This document shows, piece after piece, positions 20,769-63,457 of a stretch of 64,000 nucleotides of DNA; position 1 is the stretch's first letter, and the number at the start of each line of letters is the position of its first letter. Under the pieces are notes generated by a model, which worked only from the letters and a program-made list of their open reading frames with translations, did not search any database and was not told where the DNA came from. The stretch spans positions 19,774-83,773 of the forward strand of contig JAGLLX010000010.1 of NCBI GenBank assembly GCA_023140255.1, given 5' to 3'. The translations under genes and the position numbers were made by a program. This stretch comes from Minisyncoccota bacterium. Its GTDB lineage: Bacteria; Patescibacteriota; Minisyncoccia; Phycocordibacterales; UBA12079.

Positions 20769-21188
20769 ATGTTATTAAATTGGAAAAAAGAATATAGTGT
20801 AAATGTTAAAGAAATAGATGCACAACATAAAAAACTTATTGAAATGATAAACGAGCTTTATGAAATTATAAATAATAAAAACGAAAATCTACAAAAAGAG
20901 TTTACTAGAGTAGTAGGTGAACTAGAAGAGTATAAAAATTATCATTTTTCTACTGAAGAAAAATATTTTCATCAATTTAATTATGAAAATACAGAGGACC
21001 ATATAGCAAAACATATTGCATTTGGGAAAAAAATAGAAGAATTTAAAGAACATTTATCTAACCCTAATGAAAATTATCCGCAAATTTGCTTTGATTTATT
21101 AGATTATTTGGAAGATTGGTTTTTTGCACACCTAATAGGTGATGATAAAAAATATACTAAAACATTTAATGAAAATGGACTTTTTTAA
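20769..21188 (+). CDS. hemerythrin-like metal-binding protein
   Basis: W..EYSVNVKEIDAQHKKLIEMINEL ... HF..EE..F ... H...FG ... DWFFAHL matches the hemerythrin HHE His pattern. Confidence 0.7.
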   Translation: MLLNWKKEYSVNVKEIDAQHKKLIEMINELYEIINNKNENLQKEFTRVVGELEEYKNYHFSTEEKYFHQFNYENTEDHIAKHIAFGKKIEEFKEHLSNPNENYPQICFDLLDYLEDWFFAHLIGDDKKYTKTFNENGLF

Positions 21189-21191
21189 AAA

Positions 21192-21353
21192 ATGAATCCT
21201 GTTAGATGTTTAGAGAAAATAATAAATTTATTTAAATATAAAAACGGGACCAAAAACATTATTAGTTTAATTTAAAATTATTTACTTTTTGTAAATTATG
21301 AGGGACTTGTCCCGTTAGAGATAATTTACTAGAGGTAAATTATCTCTAACGGG
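21192..21353 (+). promoter_or_regulatory. leader element copy 1: mini-ORF plus inverted repeat abutting the kinase start codon
   Basis: Mini-ORF 21192-21275 (27 aa, MNPVRCLEKIINLFKYKNGTKNIISLI). Then hairpin ATTATTTAC-TTTTT-GTAAATTAT. Then perfect inverted repeat CCCGTTAGAGATAATTTAC-tagag-GTAAATTATCTCTAACGGG ending immediately before the kinase ATG at 21354. Confidence 0.6.
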
Positions 21354-23615
21354 ATGAAAATAAAAACAAAAATAATTTTACCAATAATTTTAGTGGCTGT
21401 AATTGTATTATCAACAGCAACTTTTTATTCATATTTTTTTAATGTCAATACTTTAAATACATCAATTGGGGAACACCTAAATACAACTGTGTCTTCAAGG
21501 TCTCATCATATTGATACTTTTATAGAAGAATTAATAGGAAAAATAAAAATAGCAGCCACGCAAGAAAACTTGACCAACGAAAAACTAGAAAAAATAAAAA
21601 ATTCTAACAGAGAATTTTCAGAAGTGTTCTTGGTAAATCTTGATAAAAAAATAATTAAATCTTCAAGACAAGAGTCTATAGGCTTAGATTGTTCTATTAA
21701 TGATTATCTTGTTAATAAAAAAGATAATGTTTATATGAGAGATGCTTATATTTCTAAAATAAACGAAGAACCATCCATTGCTATTGCTATTTCTCACAAC
21801 AAAGACATATTAATCATTAGGATTAATTTGGAAATTTTAAATGATGTGACTACAAACAAAACAGGATTAGGAAATACTGGTGAAGTATATTTAATTAATA
21901 GTGCTGGGTATACCATTACTCCCCTACAATTTAGTGAAGACACTTTTTTGAAAACAAAAATAGAATCTAAAAATGCTAAGAGTTGTTTAGACACACTAAA
22001 AAACGAAACTGAACATACTGAATATAGAGGAGGGTCTGCAATATATACAAATTATAAAAAAATTGAAGTTATGGGCTCTTACCATCCCTTAAGTATAATG
22101 AACTGGTGTATCTTAGCTGAAATTGATAAATCAGAAGCATTAGCTCCAACAAAAAACTTATTAAAATTCTCTATTATAAGAATTTTGATTATCTTATTTA
22201 TATTTTTTATACTTACTTATTTGATAGCCAGAACTATTAGCAAGCCAATTATTATATTAAGCCAAGGGACAAAAATAATTAAGAACGGTAACTTAGACCA
22301 CAAGGTTGGAACCAATTCAAAAGATGAAATTGGAAGTTTATCAAGAGATTTTGATGAAATGACCGTTGCAATTAAAAAATCACAAATAGAAATTGACAAA
22401 AAAGTTAAAGAGCAGACAAGGGAAATAATAGAAAAACAAAAAGATATTGAAAATCAACAAGAAGCTATCCTAAATGTACTAGAAGATGTAGAAAATGAAA
22501 AAAAGAAAACAGAAATTGAACGAGATAAAATAGACGCTATTCTTCATAGTATTGGTGATGGAGTTTTTGTAGTTGATAAAGATAAAAAAATTACTATTTT
22601 TAATAATATTGCTGAACAAATATCAGGATTTAACAAAGAAGATGTGTTAGGAAAAAACTATCTAGATATTTTGAAATTTATTCATGAAAAAGACAGAACT
22701 CCTAATAATGATTTTATTGAAAAAGCTTTTTCTTTAGGGAAAATTCAAATGATGAAGAACCATACTTTACTTATTAAAAAAGATAAAAGTGAAGTTCCTG
22801 TAGCCGACAGTTCTGCTCCAATAAAAGATAGTGCTGGAAATATAATTGGATGTATCGTTGTTTTCAGAGACGCGACAGCTGAAAGAAAAGCTGAACAAAT
22901 AAAATCAGATTTCGTGTCTATCGCCTCTCACCAACTAAGAACTCCTTTAACGGGAATTCAGTGGGTAACAGAAAGACTGTTAAAACATTCAACTGCTTTG
23001 CCAGAAAAAGAGCAGCAATATATTAAAGATATTAACCTTTCTTCCAAAAGACTATCCACCCTTGTAGACAGTCTATTAAATGTTTCTAGAATTGAAGGAG
23101 GAAAAATAACTATAAAGCCTGAAAAAATAGAGTTGATTGATTTTATTAAAAGCTATCTAACAGAGACTAATCCTTTAACAGAAGCAAAAAATATTAGTTT
23201 AAAATTTAATACACACCCAGAAAATTTAGAAATATTGACTGATCGTTCAGGTATAAGAAATATTGTTCAGTCCTTAGTCTCCAATGCGATTGAATACACA
23301 CCTGAAAATGGAAATATAGAAGTTTCTGTTGAGGACAATGTAGAAAAAGATTCTTTCTTGTTTAAAATAAAAGATACAGGGATAGGAATTCCTTCGAAAA
23401 ACCAAGCCACTATTTTTGATAAATTTACTCGAGGAGAAAATGCCCAGCAAGTTAAAACTGATGGAACAGGATTCGGATTATACATTACAAAACAAACAGT
23501 TGATTTATTAGGCGGAAAAATAAGATTTGAATCTATTGAAAACGAAGGAACAACTTTCTTTGTAACCTTACCTAAAATATCCAAAGCTAAAGAAGGCGGA
23601 AAAAGTTTTGTATAA
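21354..23615 (+). CDS. sensor histidine kinase (Cache-like extracytoplasmic domain, HAMP, PAS, HisKA, HATPase_c)
   Basis: H-box SHQLRTPLTGI. N/G1/G2 boxes in NAIEYTPENGNIEV ... DTGIGIP ... GTGFGLYI. Confidence 0.85.
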   Translation: MKIKTKIILPIILVAVIVLSTATFYSYFFNVNTLNTSIGEHLNTTVSSRSHHIDTFIEELIGKIKIAATQENLTNEKLEKIKNSNREFSEVFLVNLDKKIIKSSRQESIGLDCSINDYLVNKKDNVYMRDAYISKINEEPSIAIAISHNKDILIIRINLEILNDVTTNKTGLGNTGEVYLINSAGYTITPLQFSEDTFLKTKIESKNAKSCLDTLKNETEHTEYRGGSAIYTNYKKIEVMGSYHPLSIMNWCILAEIDKSEALAPTKNLLKFSIIRILIILFIFFILTYLIARTISKPIIILSQGTKIIKNGNLDHKVGTNSKDEIGSLSRDFDEMTVAIKKSQIEIDKKVKEQTREIIEKQKDIENQQEAILNVLEDVENEKKKTEIERDKIDAILHSIGDGVFVVDKDKKITIFNNIAEQISGFNKEDVLGKNYLDILKFIHEKDRTPNNDFIEKAFSLGKIQMMKNHTLLIKKDKSEVPVADSSAPIKDSAGNIIGCIVVFRDATAERKAEQIKSDFVSIASHQLRTPLTGIQWVTERLLKHSTALPEKEQQYIKDINLSSKRLSTLVDSLLNVSRIEGGKITIKPEKIELIDFIKSYLTETNPLTEAKNISLKFNTHPENLEILTDRSGIRNIVQSLVSNAIEYTPENGNIEVSVEDNVEKDSFLFKIKDTGIGIPSKNQATIFDKFTRGENAQQVKTDGTGFGLYITKQTVDLLGGKIRFESIENEGTTFFVTLPKISKAKEGGKSFV

Positions 23616-24116: not shown

Positions 24117-26567
24117 ATGATGTTTTTTAAAAAAATTATAATAATATCTATATTTTTTTTATTAAGTTTTTTTCCTATTGTCAAAATATTTGCTGATACA
24201 ACAACTTATAATTTTTCAGGAGTGAATACAGGGAACGATGGAATAAACGAAAATCCAATTGTCATAGAACACGATTCTGATATTTTTCCATGGACAACCT
24301 TGGCTGAACAAAATGATTCAGCTAATCCCACTGACGTTGAATATGTGAATATATCTACAGATAATACATCTCAATGGGCAACTGACGACCCTGGGAGAAA
24401 GGATGAAATGGCAATAACTTATAAATTTTTTATTCAAGAAACTATAAGTGATATTTCTAATATTCAGATAAAATGGAACGGAAATACAGACGGGACTTCC
24501 TCCAGTAATCATTCTGTTTGGTTAAGAAAAGACGGCCTAGATGAATTCGGAGGAATAAATACTTGGGTGCAACTAGGGACTTCTCTCTCTATTCCTCAAG
24601 ATATTGATACTGATTTAATTAGAAATTTAACTACTGATTTTGCTACTTATATTAATGCTTCTACAGGACAATTTGAATTTGTTATTACAACAGATAGAGA
24701 ATCAGAAGATATGCGGACAAATTATATTGAAATTATTACTACTTATACTGTAATCCCTCCAGCTGACACAACTCCTCCATCAGCAATTTTAGATTTAAGT
24801 TCTTCAAACGCAACAACTAATTCAATTGATTTATCTTGGACAGCCGTTGGAGATGACAACTTAACGGGATTAGCCTCAAGTTATGATATTAGATATGCAA
24901 TTTCTCCAATTACAGAATCAAATTGGTCTTCTGCTACTCAAGTTTCTGGAGAACCTTCTCCTTCTATAGGAGGGTCTTCTGAATTAATGACTGTTTCGGG
25001 ACTTAACTCTAATACTACATATTATTTCGCAATTAAGACTTCTGATGAGGTTCCTAATGAATCAATAATTTCCAACGTTCCATCAGAAACAACAAACACA
25101 ATTCCACCTATTCCTGACACTACCCCACCATCTGATATTTCAGACTTAGCAAGTTTTGGAGCAACAACTAGTTCAATTGAATTAAATTGGACAGCCGTTG
25201 GAGATGACAACTTAACGGGATTAGCCTCAAGTTATGATATTAGATATGCAATTTCTCCAATTACAGAATCAAATTGGTCTTCTGCTACTCAAGTTTCTGG
25301 AGAACCTTCTCCTTCTATAGGAGGGTCTTCTGAATTAATGACTGTTTCGGGACTAAACCCAGATACTCTTTATCACTTTGCAATTAAAAGTTCTGACGAA
25401 GTCCCCAACGAATCAGAGATTTCAAATGCAACCAGTCTTAGCACAGATGACACTCCTCTAGTTTCAGATACTACCCCACCATCTGATATCTCTGACCTAA
25501 GCCCTTCAAACGCAACAACTAATTCAATTGATTTATCTTGGACAGCCGTTGGAGATGACAACTTAACGGGATTAGCCTCAAGTTATGATGTCAGATATTC
25601 AACAACTGCTGTTACAGAATCTAGTTGGTCTTCTGCTACCTTAGCTATTGGGGAGCCCAATCCATCTTCCCCAGGAAGTTCTGAATCTTTTAGTATTACA
25701 AATATTCCTTCTGAGACTACATATTATTTTGCCATTAAAACTTCCGATGAATCAAATAATCAATCAACAATTTCGAATATTCCTTCTTTAAGTACTTTAG
25801 CAGAATCCAGTGTATCTATTCCTACAAATGTATCAGGAGGAGTCTCCGCAACTAGTGTAATTTTTTCCGGACTAGCTTATCCTAATAGTAAAATTATAGT
25901 AAGGTTCAAAGACTCAGTTAACCCTCTTTATAATAATGTTCCTCTTTCAACTTATTCAATTTCTAGTTCTGGAGAATTTTATGTAAGCTACGCAGCTTTA
26001 CTAAGTGGAGCATATTTTTTCACTCTACAAGCACAAGATAAAGACAACCAAAAAACAGATGTTCTTTCTTTCAATGTAGATTTTCGTACAGATAAAAAGT
26101 TAATGGTAGAAGATATTTTCTTTAGTCCAACTATAAGTTTTAATCAAGATTTATTACGTTTAAGTGATGCTTTAGAAATTCATGGATATTCATCCCCAAA
26201 TTCCAAAATAAAATTAGAAATAGATGATATAATATTAAATGAAACTATTTCTGATAAAATTGGTTATTATTCATTTGAATTCAGCCCCGGAGATTTTACC
26301 TTAGGAGTTCATTACGCTAGAGTTAGCCAAAACAAAGATGATAGAGAAAGCAATTACACTTCTCCACGAAGTTTTAAAGTAACTTCTTTAACATACCCTC
26401 GAGCAGATTTTAATAGAGATAATTCCGTTGATGTTACTGATTGGAGTGTTTTCTTATACCGCTGGGGAGATATGGAAAATAATTTACGAAATGAAATTGA
26501 CTTAGACTCTAATGGGATAATTGACATTGGTGACTTTAGTATATTTTTAAAAGCAATTAAATTATAA
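24117..26567 (+). CDS. secreted protein with three tandem Fn3-like repeats and a C-terminal dockerin-like module
   Basis: Signal/TM at the N-terminus. Three roughly 117-aa repeats (TTPPSDISDL...WTAVGDDNLTGLASSYDIRY...YYFAIK). C-terminal DFNRDNSVDVTDWSVF...DLDSNGIIDIGDFSIF matches the duplicated calcium-binding dockerin repeat pattern. Confidence 0.65.
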   Translation: MMFFKKIIIISIFFLLSFFPIVKIFADTTTYNFSGVNTGNDGINENPIVIEHDSDIFPWTTLAEQNDSANPTDVEYVNISTDNTSQWATDDPGRKDEMAITYKFFIQETISDISNIQIKWNGNTDGTSSSNHSVWLRKDGLDEFGGINTWVQLGTSLSIPQDIDTDLIRNLTTDFATYINASTGQFEFVITTDRESEDMRTNYIEIITTYTVIPPADTTPPSAILDLSSSNATTNSIDLSWTAVGDDNLTGLASSYDIRYAISPITESNWSSATQVSGEPSPSIGGSSELMTVSGLNSNTTYYFAIKTSDEVPNESIISNVPSETTNTIPPIPDTTPPSDISDLASFGATTSSIELNWTAVGDDNLTGLASSYDIRYAISPITESNWSSATQVSGEPSPSIGGSSELMTVSGLNPDTLYHFAIKSSDEVPNESEISNATSLSTDDTPLVSDTTPPSDISDLSPSNATTNSIDLSWTAVGDDNLTGLASSYDVRYSTTAVTESSWSSATLAIGEPNPSSPGSSESFSITNIPSETTYYFAIKTSDESNNQSTISNIPSLSTLAESSVSIPTNVSGGVSATSVIFSGLAYPNSKIIVRFKDSVNPLYNNVPLSTYSISSSGEFYVSYAALLSGAYFFTLQAQDKDNQKTDVLSFNVDFRTDKKLMVEDIFFSPTISFNQDLLRLSDALEIHGYSSPNSKIKLEIDDIILNETISDKIGYYSFEFSPGDFTLGVHYARVSQNKDDRESNYTSPRSFKVTSLTYPRADFNRDNSVDVTDWSVFLYRWGDMENNLRNEIDLDSNGIIDIGDFSIFLKAIKL
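24765..25818 (+). repeat. intragenic tandem DNA repeat, about 351 bp x 3
   Basis: Units start at about 24765, 25116 and 25467. About 165 bp is identical between units 1 and 2 (24837-25001 versus 25189-25353). Unit 3 is more diverged. Confidence 0.8.
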
Positions 26568-28836: not shown

Positions 28837-29664
28837 CTACTGTTGATTTAAAAAACCTTTTGCTTTCTTTAATTGGTCTTTAATCATACTGTCTAAAGGT
28901 TTAAATCCGTTCGCAGGTTTAGGTTTCTCTAAAAGATCACAGCTATCATCCCATTCTTCTTCCCAAGGTTGTAGACACGCTTCTTTAGCTTCACACCAAA
29001 GATAACCTGCTGATCCAATACAACCATGTTCATCTTTGTCTCCTCCAACTCTTTGTTCTTCACGAACTTCTTTTATATCCTCTCTTACATTTGCAACATC
29101 TTCTCTTCTGTCTTTATTTAATTCAGCTAATTCTTCTTTAGCTTCTTCGTCTCCGTCTTTAATTTTTTGAATTAAACCAGCTCTTTCCTCGTTAAATTCT
29201 TGTATTTTTTGCTTTCGTTCTTCTATCTTAGCCTTTTGTTCAGTTAATCTTTCCTGAAGCTTTTCTGCAACTTCTGATTTTTTAGCCTCTGCTTTTTCTA
29301 CAAATGATTCTGCTTTTGCAATCATTCGTTCAGCTTTTGCCTGAGCCTCTTCTGTATCAGCACTCTGGGCAAAAGCTTCAGCTAACTCCATTCTTCTATC
29401 AGCAAAAGCTAAGGCCTTTTCTACTCTTTTTTCTGGATTAAAAGTAAAAGTCATAGAAAAACTTTCTTTTACCCCTATCCACCATAAACCTATATTTGAA
29501 GGAACTTTAACCTCTTCTAATTCTTCTTCTAATATTAATTCTGGTACAGGCATACCTTCATCATAAACTACAGGATCAACTGGCATTTCATCTTCAGCTT
29601 GAACTGTTATAGCCCCTAAAAAAGCCATAGAAAAAATCATTGTGTATAATAATATTTTTTTCAT
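28837..29664 (-). CDS. secreted coiled-coil protein with a C-terminal Cys-containing domain
   Basis: Signal peptide, long E/K/A-rich coiled coil, C-terminal HGCIGSAGYLWCEAKEACLQPWEEEWDDSCD. Preceded by leader element copy 2. Confidence 0.6.
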   Translation of the reverse strand: MKKILLYTMIFSMAFLGAITVQAEDEMPVDPVVYDEGMPVPELILEEELEEVKVPSNIGLWWIGVKESFSMTFTFNPEKRVEKALAFADRRMELAEAFAQSADTEEAQAKAERMIAKAESFVEKAEAKKSEVAEKLQERLTEQKAKIEERKQKIQEFNEERAGLIQKIKDGDEEAKEELAELNKDRREDVANVREDIKEVREEQRVGGDKDEHGCIGSAGYLWCEAKEACLQPWEEEWDDSCDLLEKPKPANGFKPLDSMIKDQLKKAKGFLNQQ

Positions 29665-29764
29665 CCCGTTAGAGATAATCTGCTTTTGACAGATAATCTT
29701 AAGTTAACTAATAATTTTTTATTCCCGTTTTATTTATTCTTTCTAAATCTCTAACGGGATTCAT
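29665..29764 (-). promoter_or_regulatory. leader element copy 2 (minus strand): mini-ORF MNPVRDLERINKTGIKNY (29708-29764) plus the inverted-repeat arm abutting the gene ATG
   Basis: Minus-strand reading: ATGAATCCCGTTAGAGAT ... ATTATCTCTAACGGG then ATG (gene start at 29664). The upstream arm is the first six codons of the mini-ORF. Confidence 0.6.
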
Positions 29765-57226: not shown

Positions 57227-57817
57227 TTACTTATTTTCTAAAATCTTAAAATCTTTTTTAAGATCATCACGACTAAATGAGTTATATAATGCCACGGCGG
57301 GATGAAGTAAAGGAACAATTTTTATTGCCCCATAAGAAGTTTTAACCTCAAAAGATTTTCCTCTCATTTTTCCAATAGTTTCAATTTCTAAATCTAAATT
57401 AAATTTTTTCATTATATATTCTGCAGAATACCTACCCAAAGTTGCAATAATTTTAGGTTGAATAATTTCTATTTGCCTATCTAAAAAAGGCCCATAAATT
57501 TCAATTTCTTCTTCAGACGGGTCTCGATTAGCAGTTGGTCTGTCTTTAACTATGTTTGTAATATAAATATCTTCCCTTTTTAAATTAATTGAACTTAAAA
57601 GTTCATCTAAAACCCTCCCTGAAGCTCCACAAAAAGGCTGTCCTGTTTGAGCTTCATTTTTTCCAGGAGCTTCTCCCACAAACATAATTTTTGCATTATG
57701 ATCCCCTGCTCCAATGACAGGAAAAACTTTGTTTTTAATTCTTTCTGTATACAAAGGAGATTTTTTAAGATTTAAAATTTCATCCTTTATTTGTTTCATT
57801 TGTTCTGTTTTATTCAT
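57227..57817 (-). CDS. uracil-DNA glycosylase, family 4
   Basis: GEAPGKNEAQTGQPFCGASGRVLDELL motif. Preceded by leader element copy 3. Confidence 0.8.
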   Translation of the reverse strand: MNKTEQMKQIKDEILNLKKSPLYTERIKNKVFPVIGAGDHNAKIMFVGEAPGKNEAQTGQPFCGASGRVLDELLSSINLKREDIYITNIVKDRPTANRDPSEEEIEIYGPFLDRQIEIIQPKIIATLGRYSAEYIMKKFNLDLEIETIGKMRGKSFEVKTSYGAIKIVPLLHPAVALYNSFSRDDLKKDFKILENK

Positions 57818-57901
57818 CCCGTTAGAGATAATTTACAAAAAGTAAATAATCTTAATTTAATTGATAATTTTTAACCCCGCCAAATCTCTAACGAGATTCA
57901 T
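57818..57901 (-). promoter_or_regulatory. leader element copy 3 (minus strand): mini-ORF MNLVRDLAGLKIIN (57857-57901) plus hairpin plus the arm abutting the UDG ATG
   Basis: Minus-strand reading: ATGAATCTCGTTAGAGAT ... ATTATTTAC-TTTTT-GTAAATTATCTCTAACGGG then ATG (57817). Confidence 0.6.
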
Positions 57902-62625: not shown

Positions 62626-62859
62626 ATGGCTCATCTAGATGAGCCATTTAGTATGGTTTGAAATATAGCTAAATATTGAGCCTACCAATACCAACAAACA
62701 AGTAGCAGAAATATTGTTTAATATCCTTTCTTCTTAATTTTACCTAAAACTTTCTTTATTACTGCAGTTAACTACGATAATTCAAGTTAACTTATACCTA
62801 AATTTCTTATTTCATTATTTTTAGCACTCTCTCTTGAAACACAAACAATATCTTGTTTT

Positions 62860-62879
62860 TAGTTCAATCGATTGAACTA
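62860..62879. promoter_or_regulatory. 20-bp perfect palindrome TAGTTCAATCGATTGAACTA, copy 1 (within the 29-bp direct repeat 62851-62879)
   Basis: Verified as self-reverse-complementary. Located just past the 3' end of the YerC/TrpR-like gene. Confidence 0.6.
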
Positions 62880-62891
62880 ATTTAAGTTTAT

Positions 62892-63299
62892 TTAGTATTT
62901 GTTTAAAAAGTTCCATCTTCCTTTTCCCACAATAGGAGGCATCCCACATTTTAAAACTTTATCTAATCCTTCCCAAAAAGTAACTCTGTTCTTTTTTTGC
63001 TTTATTATTTCTATAATATCTTTATATTTTTCTAAATCAATATCTATAGCAATTCTTTTCACGGTGGCAGGACTTACCTTTAATGCTTTAGAAATTTTAT
63101 ACCAACTTATATTCTCTTGAAGCATAAAAATAATAGCTAATCTTTTTGCTAAAACTATTTTTTCAGAATCCCCTAATAAATCATTTACAAAATTTTTAGT
63201 AGAATTATTTGATTCTAATCTAGTAATAGTATCAATTAATCCAAAATTAATTTGATCAAGAACATTCTTTTTTAATTTTTCTTTTGAAACACGAGCCAT
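62892..63299 (-). CDS. YerC/YecD (Trp-repressor-like) family DNA-binding protein
   Basis: KISKALKVSPATVKRIAID helix-turn-helix and the overall YerC-like length and pattern. Confidence 0.5.
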   Translation of the reverse strand: MARVSKEKLKKNVLDQINFGLIDTITRLESNNSTKNFVNDLLGDSEKIVLAKRLAIIFMLQENISWYKISKALKVSPATVKRIAIDIDLEKYKDIIEIIKQKKNRVTFWEGLDKVLKCGMPPIVGKGRWNFLNKY

Positions 63300-63331
63300 A
63301 AGTGTTTTTTATTAATAAAAAATTATCTATT

Positions 63332-63351
63332 TAGTTCAATCGATTGAACTA
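63332..63351. promoter_or_regulatory. 20-bp palindrome TAGTTCAATCGATTGAACTA, copy 2 (about 35 bp upstream of the gene start)
   Basis: Identical to copy 1. Confidence 0.6.
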
Positions 63352-63395
63352 TTATTATTTTAATTTATGAGATTAGACTTACTATCTCTTGTTTT

Positions 63396-63415
63396 TAGTT
63401 CAATCGATTGAACTA
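63396..63415. promoter_or_regulatory. 20-bp palindrome TAGTTCAATCGATTGAACTA, copy 3 (within the 29-bp direct repeat 63387-63415)
   Basis: TCTTGTTTTTAGTTCAATCGATTGAACTA shared with copy 1. Confidence 0.6.
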
Positions 63416-63457
63416 TTTTAATCATTTTGAACAATTAAAATTTAAATATCGTTCTTT

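Follow-up and report, generated by a model that had tools for sequence, protein, structure and literature searches.

Three start-codon repeats in a Patescibacteria contig as probable non-autonomous copies of a mobile element that encodes a GIY-YIG nuclease

We analysed a stretch of 64,000 nucleotides from contig JAGLLX010000010.1 of a Minisyncoccota bacterium (hereafter the window), in which three inverted-repeat elements of 78–162 nt, with arms CCCGTTAGAGAT/ATCTCTAACGGG, each adjoin the ATG of an unrelated gene. These three apparent leaders are very probably non-autonomous copies, similar to MITEs (miniature inverted-repeat transposable elements), of a family of mobile elements in the ultra-small Patescibacteria that targets start codons and encodes a GIY-YIG nuclease. 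A preliminary description of the window had read them as a leader-peptide type of translational control, with a MITE-like mobile origin as the alternative. That alternative is supported, and it is extended by autonomous copies elsewhere that encode the nuclease. Comparison with orthologous and related loci makes the mobile origin of the three copies a well-supported conclusion, while for what the nuclease does and for why start codons are favoured we lean towards the explanation given below with distinctly less assurance.

The repeat in the window is beyond chance. The sequence ATCTCTAACGGG occurs five times exactly and once with a single mismatch, making up three inverted pairs, and at two or fewer mismatches there are 13 matches against 2.15 expected, with a maximum of 6 in shuffled sequences (n = 100). 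Alignment of the three copies gives a common plan of ATGAA-T-CCCGTTAGAGAT, a YGGGA box, TTAAATTAAGATT, a hairpin and ATTATCTCTAACGGG-ATG, in which the arms are exact or nearly exact terminal inverted repeats of 12–19 nt and ATGAA is present at both ends of all three copies. They hold only an incidental open reading frame (ORF) of 14–27 aa and no transposition gene. The near-identical contexts ahead of three unrelated ATGs, the three mini-ORF sequences and the palindrome of copy 1, with its 19-nt arms and 5-nt loop, are all as first described. The copies and their host genes, with domains assigned by Pfam, are as follows.

21192–21353, plus strand: copy 1, composite and non-autonomous, upstream of the histidine-kinase gene.
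21192–21209, plus strand: copy 1, duplicated start codon (ATGAA) and degenerate 5′ arm TCCTGTTAGATGT, which opens the mini-ORF at 21192–21275.
21277–21299, plus strand: copy 1, subterminal hairpin ATTATTTAC-TTTTT-GTAAATTAT.
21311–21353, plus strand: copy 1, perfect palindrome formed by the inverted copy of the 3′ end and the 3′ arm, CCCGTTAGAGATAATTTAC TAGAG GTAAATTATCTCTAACGGG.
21354–23615, plus strand: host gene 1, a dCache/HAMP/PAS/HisKA/HATPase histidine kinase of 753 aa, with its ATG regenerated at the 3′ end of copy 1.
29665–29764, minus strand: copy 2, 100 nt including the 5′ repeat ATGAA.
29764–29760, minus strand: copy 2, 5′ repeat ATGAA, followed by the 5′ arm (29758–29747) and the CGGGA box (29729–29721).
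29698–29674, minus strand: copy 2, hairpin, followed by the 3′ arm (29676–29665).
28837–29664, minus strand: host gene 2, a protein of 275 aa with a signal-peptide-like N-terminus and only a weak match to DUF5667.
57818–57901, minus strand: copy 3, 84 nt including the 5′ repeat ATGAA.
57901–57897, minus strand: copy 3, 5′ repeat ATGAA, followed by the 5′ arm CTCGTTAGAGAT (57895–57884) and the GGGG box (57881–57873).
57851–57827, minus strand: copy 3, hairpin, followed by the 3′ arm (57829–57818).
57227–57817, minus strand: host gene 3, a uracil-DNA glycosylase (UDG) superfamily protein of 196 aa.

Copy 1 is an element of the short size class described below (class A) with an inverted duplication at its 3′ end, GAGGGACTTGT plus CCCGTTAGAGATAATTTAC, positioned after the hairpin; the inverted duplicate produces the 19+5+19 palindrome. 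A hairpin with a TTTTT loop, first attributed to all three copies, is literal in copies 1 and 3, whereas copy 2 has only a compensated version, ATTATCTG-TCAAAAG-CAGATTAT. A separate observation concerns the ends of the elements. The sequence GGACTTGT lies immediately 5′ of CCCGTTAGAGAT in three unrelated genomes (loci L001 and L070, and the window at 21300–21310), and the opposite end of L072 reads ...CGGGACAAG. These contexts suggest a variant terminus, CTTGT/CCCG...CGGG/ACAAG, which creates no ATG.

Orthologues of all three host genes in related Pacebacteria genomes have empty sites, which rules out a conserved leader. Conservation of the mini-ORF in related genomes had been suggested as a check on a regulatory role, and the element is absent upstream of the orthologues of all three genes. 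The gene order of the kinase locus is kept in both L222 and L223 (dCache/HAMP, kinase, response regulator, fn3 protein, Big_13 protein, response regulator), and the kinase ATG in each is preceded by ordinary A+T-rich sequence. The kinase N-terminus, MKI[KR]TKIILPI..., is the same with and without the element, and the orthologue of the secreted protein starts MKKILLYT.... Five UDG orthologues (82–87% identity), all beside the same DNA polymerase III delta′ gene, are also without the element. The N-termini at the empty sites of the other two genes compare as follows.

Kinase orthologue in L222, 70% identity: MKIKTKIILPIV (ATGAAG), against MKIKTKIILPII in the window; element absent.
Kinase orthologue in L223, 68% identity: MKIRTKIILPIV (ATGAAA), against MKIKTKIILPII in the window; element absent.
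Secreted-protein orthologue in L223: MKKILLYTTIFSLTFLGAITVNAED, against MKKILLYTMIFSMAFLGAITVQAED in the window; element absent.

The empty-site comparison shows the targets to have been ATGAA at the start codon.

We then compared the window copies with elements from other genomes. A scan of one genome per species with the pattern ATTATCTCTAACGGGAT yielded 88 stretches. This query included the AT after GGG, and the control for it was an unconstrained two-arm pattern run on metagenome contigs, which gave at least 120 stretches, with 123 analysable elements in those listed. In the genome scan, paired elements were found almost entirely in metagenome-assembled genomes (MAGs) labelled Paceibacterota, Nomura-, Yanofsky-, Jorgensen-, Davies-, Moranii-, Nealson- or 'Saccharibacteria', and matches outside Patescibacteria were mostly single, unpaired and chance-like. 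The elements fall into three sizes: class A of 78–115 nt, like the window copies; class B of 115–124 nt, with a G+C-rich hairpin beside the 3′ arm; and a third class of 274–278 nt, with the same arms and one ORF inside. In every genome with the element, the host genes are unrelated to one another. Identical 117-nt copies (100%) stand at two loci within one MAG, and copy 3, which shares only 65% identity with copy 2, is matched at about 94% identity by copies next to unrelated genes in three other MAGs. Such identical and near-identical sequences at different loci are evidence for what appears to be past movement.

Two further loci at UDG genes should be mentioned. The contig of L091 (Logan contig SRR13892605_14207, 980 nt) begins 24 nt upstream of the UDG ATG, that is, within the element, and such repeats may thus break short-read assemblies. 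In a related genome, a different inverted-repeat pair, CCCTGTTAAATAA ... TTATTTAACAGGG (L092:1330–1500), stops 3 nt short of the UDG orthologue's ATG and may represent a further family of the same habit.

The flanks of the elements carry the marks of insertion. On the 5′ side the flank is nearly always ATG plus 1–3 nt, followed by T-CCCG, and the direct repeat of the host start region is identical in 47 of 51 elements (for example ATGGA/ATGGA and ATGCAA/ATGCAA). Agreement between the repeats at position 4 (A or G) is significant (Fisher p = 6e-7), and the result was replicated in the metagenome sample (31/35, p = 1e-5, among the matches listed). Since the flanking bases match the start of the downstream ORF, the ATG of the mini-ORF is a duplicated host start codon, which reads into the terminal repeat and so encodes MNPVRD.... 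In variants with the termini ..AAC/CCCG...CGGG/GTGAA, the upstream copy is ATG and the rebuilt host start is GTG; thus, the new start codon takes its first base, at the least, from the element.

Contact with start codons is frequent. In the genome set, 55 of the 66 paired elements have one end adjoining an ORF of 40 aa or more. The metagenome elements, among the matches listed, comprise an A-type with T...A termini, as in the window, and a G-type with C...G termini and identical 12-nt arms. For the A-type, 42 of 55 adjoin an ORF of at least 40 aa, ATG is present in 52 of 55, and a perfect 5-nt repeat is found in 32 of 55 against 6.0 expected from shuffles. G-type elements have direct repeats in 24 of 63 cases, against a shuffled expectation of 3.2; their flanks carry repeats such as GTAAA, GTCAA and GTTTA, and the junctions read GTNNAC (L102–L221, e.g. 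L103, L116, L132 and L166). Taken together, the general target of the family looks like R-T-N-N-A, with a probable duplication of 4–5 nt. The window contains 20 ATGRA sites at start codons, 52 at intergenic positions that are not starts and 383 inside ORFs. If all the non-disruptive sites were equal, start-codon contact would be expected in 28% of cases, against the 76–95% observed (p ≤ 1e-13), and survivorship at ATGRA sites was rejected as the sole explanation.

The third size class supplies the putative autonomous partner. In eight copies (L023, L039, L054, L063, L066, L072, L079 and L085), arms shared with the window copies enclose a GIY-YIG ORF, which both arms flank or overlap in 8/8 cases. 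The autonomous element is about 275 bp long, with terminal inverted repeats of 14–17 nt, (A)TCCCGTTAGAGAT(AAT) ... ATCTCTAACGGG(AT), and a structured region adjoins the 3′ repeat. Its ORF encodes a single-domain GIY-YIG protein of 86 aa (PF01541, E values of 1e-15 and 1.5e-19, residues 1–69), whose nearest solved relatives are the UPF0213 proteins 1zg2 (E value of 5e-6) and 1ywl. The catalytic residues Tyr, Tyr, Arg, His and Glu do not vary, and the Asn varies hardly at all. The last codons of the ORF, TTC CTA TCT CTA ACG GGA TGA (FLSLTG followed by stop), are themselves the 3′ arm, with the TGA sharing bases with the ATG of the host gene that follows.

Homologues of this nuclease are numerous. 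At least 6200 protein clusters match it at E ≤ 1e-5 in a large protein collection, and the taxon-specific source names are all Patescibacteria lineages among the matches listed. Among the 120 nearest homologues, 92 have the C-terminus FLSLTG and roughly a dozen others have close variants such as FLTLTG, FLFLTG or RFLSLT. Of these 120, 58 are 86 aa long and 43 were called as 95 aa, most of the latter starting M[NSG]PVRD, because gene calling set out from the upstream ATG and so translated the 5′ arm. Selection for joining the duplicated start in frame to the nuclease ORF was considered and rejected, since 43/120 is about the one third expected by chance.

The autonomous copies also appear to be structured. 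RNAalifold, applied to the eight, predicts a 15-bp stem between the arms stacked on a second, long-range helix of 15 bp, which pairs the DLRKRF codons with the RLKRFL codons and contains compensatory changes (alignment columns 100–114 and 259–273). A long-range helix with compensatory changes inside the ORF indicates that the nuclease coding sequence is under a second, structural constraint. Class B elements are without the sequence between the two halves of this helix, which explains the class B hairpin and marks class B as a deletion derivative. In class A, the hairpin beside the 3′ arm is 96.5% paired across 16 copies, with 4 pairs changed on both sides, and its covariation score was reached by 0 of 500 shuffles. 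It contains many G-U and few A-C pairs, and class-A copies fold better on the sense strand; thus, the structure belongs to the top strand, either as RNA or as single-stranded DNA (ssDNA).

These structures bear on the reading first given to the three copies, that of a dedicated cis-regulatory leader in which translation of the mini-ORF opens a stem hiding the main start codon, the three genes forming a small regulon. The folding is in keeping with it. In the predicted RNA folds of the window copies, the arms pair through the A and U of the AUG, as had been anticipated for the mini-ORF start and the main start region, at −25.2, −24.9 and −33.6 kcal/mol. Shuffled sequences fold far less stably (z scores of −4.2, −5.0 and −8.5 for the three folds respectively), the last of these folds being the palindrome of copy 1; copy 1 as a whole is predicted to fold at −49 kcal/mol. 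The conserved internal YGGGA box may pair with the 5′ arm as an alternative structure, and the sense-strand preference of class A points the same way. Across the window genes (e.g. upstream of 6469 and 30290), a ribosome-binding site of the GGAGG type precedes only 2 of 55, other leaders being plain A+T-rich sequence, so translation in the source organism probably starts largely without Shine-Dalgarno pairing and structure at the start codon should matter.

We nevertheless consider a dedicated leader improbable. Besides its absence at the orthologous loci of all three genes and the lack of relation between host genes in any genome, the direct repeats mark insertion, and elsewhere these arms enclose a gene for a nuclease. 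In 15 class-A copies the length of the mini-ORF ranges from 6 to 38 aa, with its stop 4–84 nt before the host ATG, and its conservation is limited to the repeat-encoded MNPVRD(L). A search of the whole window against Rfam, one of the checks proposed at the outset, passed only tRNAs at the gathering thresholds; by E-value, the copies and four related loci returned hairpin noise, the best scores over the copies being 10–23 bits against thresholds of 38–440.

A second alternative draws on the Ssn/NTS (SRM) systems, which comprise small single-domain GIY-YIG nucleases that are site-specific for ssDNA, with cognate hairpin repeats (Chenal et al., Nat Commun 2025, PMC11893778). The nuclease genes are flanked by the repeats and their products cut ssDNA beside them; the NTS-gene-NTS arrangement lowers transformation, the repeats cluster near membrane-protein genes, and in Neisseria a role in the recombination or uptake of flanked genes has been proposed (PMC11893778). 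The window copies might likewise be host-kept recognition sites of a domesticated system, at which a resident nuclease controls recombination or uptake of the flanked genes and of which copies 1 and 2 are functional. These two copies do point inward around an 8.3-kb locus of the kinase, response regulators and fn3/Ig-like surface proteins, but bracketing by two copies may be chance. The direct repeats and empty sites speak of insertion events rather than ancestral sites, and exact contact with the start codon plays no part in such a model. The published SRM consensus, HGTCWYN(0-2)YYVSBRHN(0-5)WNVSBRGN(0-2)RNCYNB, matches neither strand of the window or of the three copies, although it does find an NTS control, and the nuclease gene is not in the window by tblastn. 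We regard this alternative as distinctly improbable.

We attach hardly any likelihood to an invertible or phase-variable DNA switch or a palindromic operator for a transcription factor; inverted repeats do lie immediately upstream of genes, including two for surface or sensory proteins, but the arms are only 19–70 nt apart, no recombinase is nearby, no promoter-like site was found on the sense strand of the elements (counts were not above shuffles), the same arms enclose an ORF elsewhere, the polarity relative to the gene is fixed in most cases, and no locus was seen with both orientations of the segment between the arms. Three other candidates were rejected: a tRNA-like origin of the arms (ARAGORN finds only six ordinary tRNAs in the window), a group I or bulge-helix-bulge intron (in view of the position upstream of the ORF, the insufficient size and the target duplications) and carriage by phage (the single viral-contig match is an unpaired chance match).

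For the mobile-element family, we propose the following mechanism. The window subfamily would insert at ATG(A/G)A, namely the start codon and the first bases of codon 2, and would duplicate 4–6 nt of this target. The last base or two of the element would then rebuild an in-frame start codon together with the duplicated bases, so that the host ORF would stay intact, and the upstream duplicate would read into the repeat as MNPVRD.... The GIY-YIG nuclease may recognise the repeat and hairpin, probably as ssDNA in the manner of the Ssn nucleases, and would drive mobility, acting in trans on copies without an ORF. In autonomous copies, the nuclease gene may borrow the translation start of the host gene, with host translation restarting through the ATGA overlap. 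For ORF-less copies it is plausible, from the predicted folds, that ribosomes loading at the duplicated upstream AUG would open the arm stem that covers the host AUG, which would make the insertion tolerable. A regulatory effect on the translation of the three host genes is also possible on this modelling.

Several points weigh against this proposal. A hydrolytic GIY-YIG nuclease is, to our knowledge, not a known transposase and could not join strands alone, and mobility is read here from sequence only. In the direct repeats ATG is followed by 1, 2 or 3 nt, and such a variable length is unusual with a classical transposase. Only 9 of the 63 G-type metagenome elements, among the matches listed, are at start codons, and the pentamer target alone is insufficient for the strong bias towards genuine start codons. 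The extra bias could come from recognition of a wider target, or it could come from slower loss of elements at start codons, because imprecise deletion there would destroy the gene. The sense-strand folding and G-U pairs of class A fit a role at the RNA level as well as one in top-strand ssDNA. Finally, the tblastn search found no GIY-YIG gene within the 64-kb window, which makes a resident nuclease for the three copies hypothetical.

The three copies nonetheless combine, by these comparisons, the traits of MITEs: terminal inverted repeats, target duplication, small ORF-less sequences in multiple copies, a longer autonomous partner, and presence or absence at orthologous sites. We found no description of this element in the literature searched. 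It may represent an undescribed class of transposable element, possibly the smallest autonomous one (about 275 bp, with the 86-aa GIY-YIG nuclease as its sole protein), of which one lineage specialised on start codons as a safe harbour and spread through most Patescibacteria lineages, leaving MITE-like relics; we see the case for this broader claim as evenly balanced.

The setting of the copies in the window is as follows. The G+C content is about 30%, and the UDG protein of host gene 3 is identical to one from a 'Candidatus Pacebacteria' MAG (ENA sample ERZ23498471). At the kinase locus, a hemerythrin-domain gene (20769–21188) lies between the dCache/HAMP gene and the kinase; it is not in L222 or L223, where those two genes are adjacent or overlapping. 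The locus had been labelled 'cohesin-dockerin', a label that Pfam does not bear out, since the domains it finds in the two large proteins are fn3 and Big_13. The gene for the 816-aa fn3-domain protein contains three tandem repeats of 351 nt, 77–91% identical, at 24760–25777.

Two other sets of inverted repeats are present in the window. The perfect palindrome TAGTTCAATCGATTGAACTA occurs three times (62845–62885, 63317–63357 and 63381–63421), flanking a Trp-repressor/helix-turn-helix-like gene (62892–63299, minus strand), and these palindromes are probably the operator sites of that gene. A 41-nt inverted repeat (83% complementary; 472–512 and 964–1004) surrounds an ORF of 100 aa (623–925) without a Pfam match.

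If the three copies are relics of this family, the MNPVRD... 'leader peptide' is an insertion scar and the 95-aa MNPVRD gene calls are read-throughs from a host start codon, which would affect the annotation of thousands of Patescibacteria genes. The family would also provide evidence, at the level of sequence, that small single-domain GIY-YIG nucleases power a mobile element which has terminal repeats and target duplications, something that the Ssn authors could only suggest. Insertion at the start codon with rebuilding of that codon would be an unusual way for the parasite of a compact genome to avoid harm. Predicted stems of 14–24 bp on the start codons of real genes, mostly without Shine-Dalgarno sequences, offer a natural test case for how start codons are found, and pairs of nuclease and repeat with defined short targets may serve for the manipulation of ssDNA.

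We compared the family with known systems. The Correia elements of Neisseria are MITEs of about 100–155 bp with 26-bp terminal repeats and a TA duplication, which are co-transcribed with their neighbours and have stems that are cut by RNase III. Our elements resemble them in being short and ORF-less, with terminal inverted repeats and a target duplication, and Correia elements likewise share a transcript with the gene that follows, in whose mRNA leader they make a long stem. However, the autonomous partner here encodes a GIY-YIG nuclease rather than a DDE transposase, and the elements insert at the start codon itself, contributing part of the rebuilt codon. IS200/IS605 elements use an HUH/Y1 transposase and have neither terminal inverted repeats nor direct repeats. 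Together with the REP/RAYT systems, they share with our elements a very small size, a subterminal hairpin beside a conserved end, a short specific target on one flank and ORF-less hairpin copies spread through the genome; in contrast, the ORF here encodes a GIY-YIG protein and no HUH/Y1 transposase, and both terminal inverted repeats and direct repeats are present. The seg genes of T-even phages encode free-standing GIY-YIG homing endonucleases with a DNA-binding domain, which home to one allelic site. Like the autonomous copies, they are GIY-YIG genes squeezed in between host genes, where stop and start codons often overlap, but they are without terminal repeats or ORF-less derivatives, and they occupy a single allelic site as opposed to many unrelated genes. 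Each of these three groups therefore shares traits with the family but fails on defining ones.

The closest known system is the Ssn/NTS pairing of GIY-YIG ssDNA nucleases with repeats, compared here by its published description. It differs from our family in that its repeats are two separate hairpins, whereas the arms here form one terminal inverted repeat around the gene, the 3′ arm lies inside the ORF, target duplications are found at the ends and insertion is at rebuilt start codons. The nearest solved relatives here are also different, being the UPF0213 proteins. The Ssn survey covered RefSeq reference and representative genomes, and its text mentions neither Patescibacteria nor start codons (PMC11893778). 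The likeness lies in a single-domain GIY-YIG protein of about 90–100 aa (86 aa here), in a gene flanked on both sides by an inverted-repeat sequence that also occurs in ORF-less copies near other genes, and in a conserved, oriented sequence beside a hairpin. The authors of that work themselves noted that the NTS-ssnA-NTS layout resembles an insertion sequence (PMC11893778).

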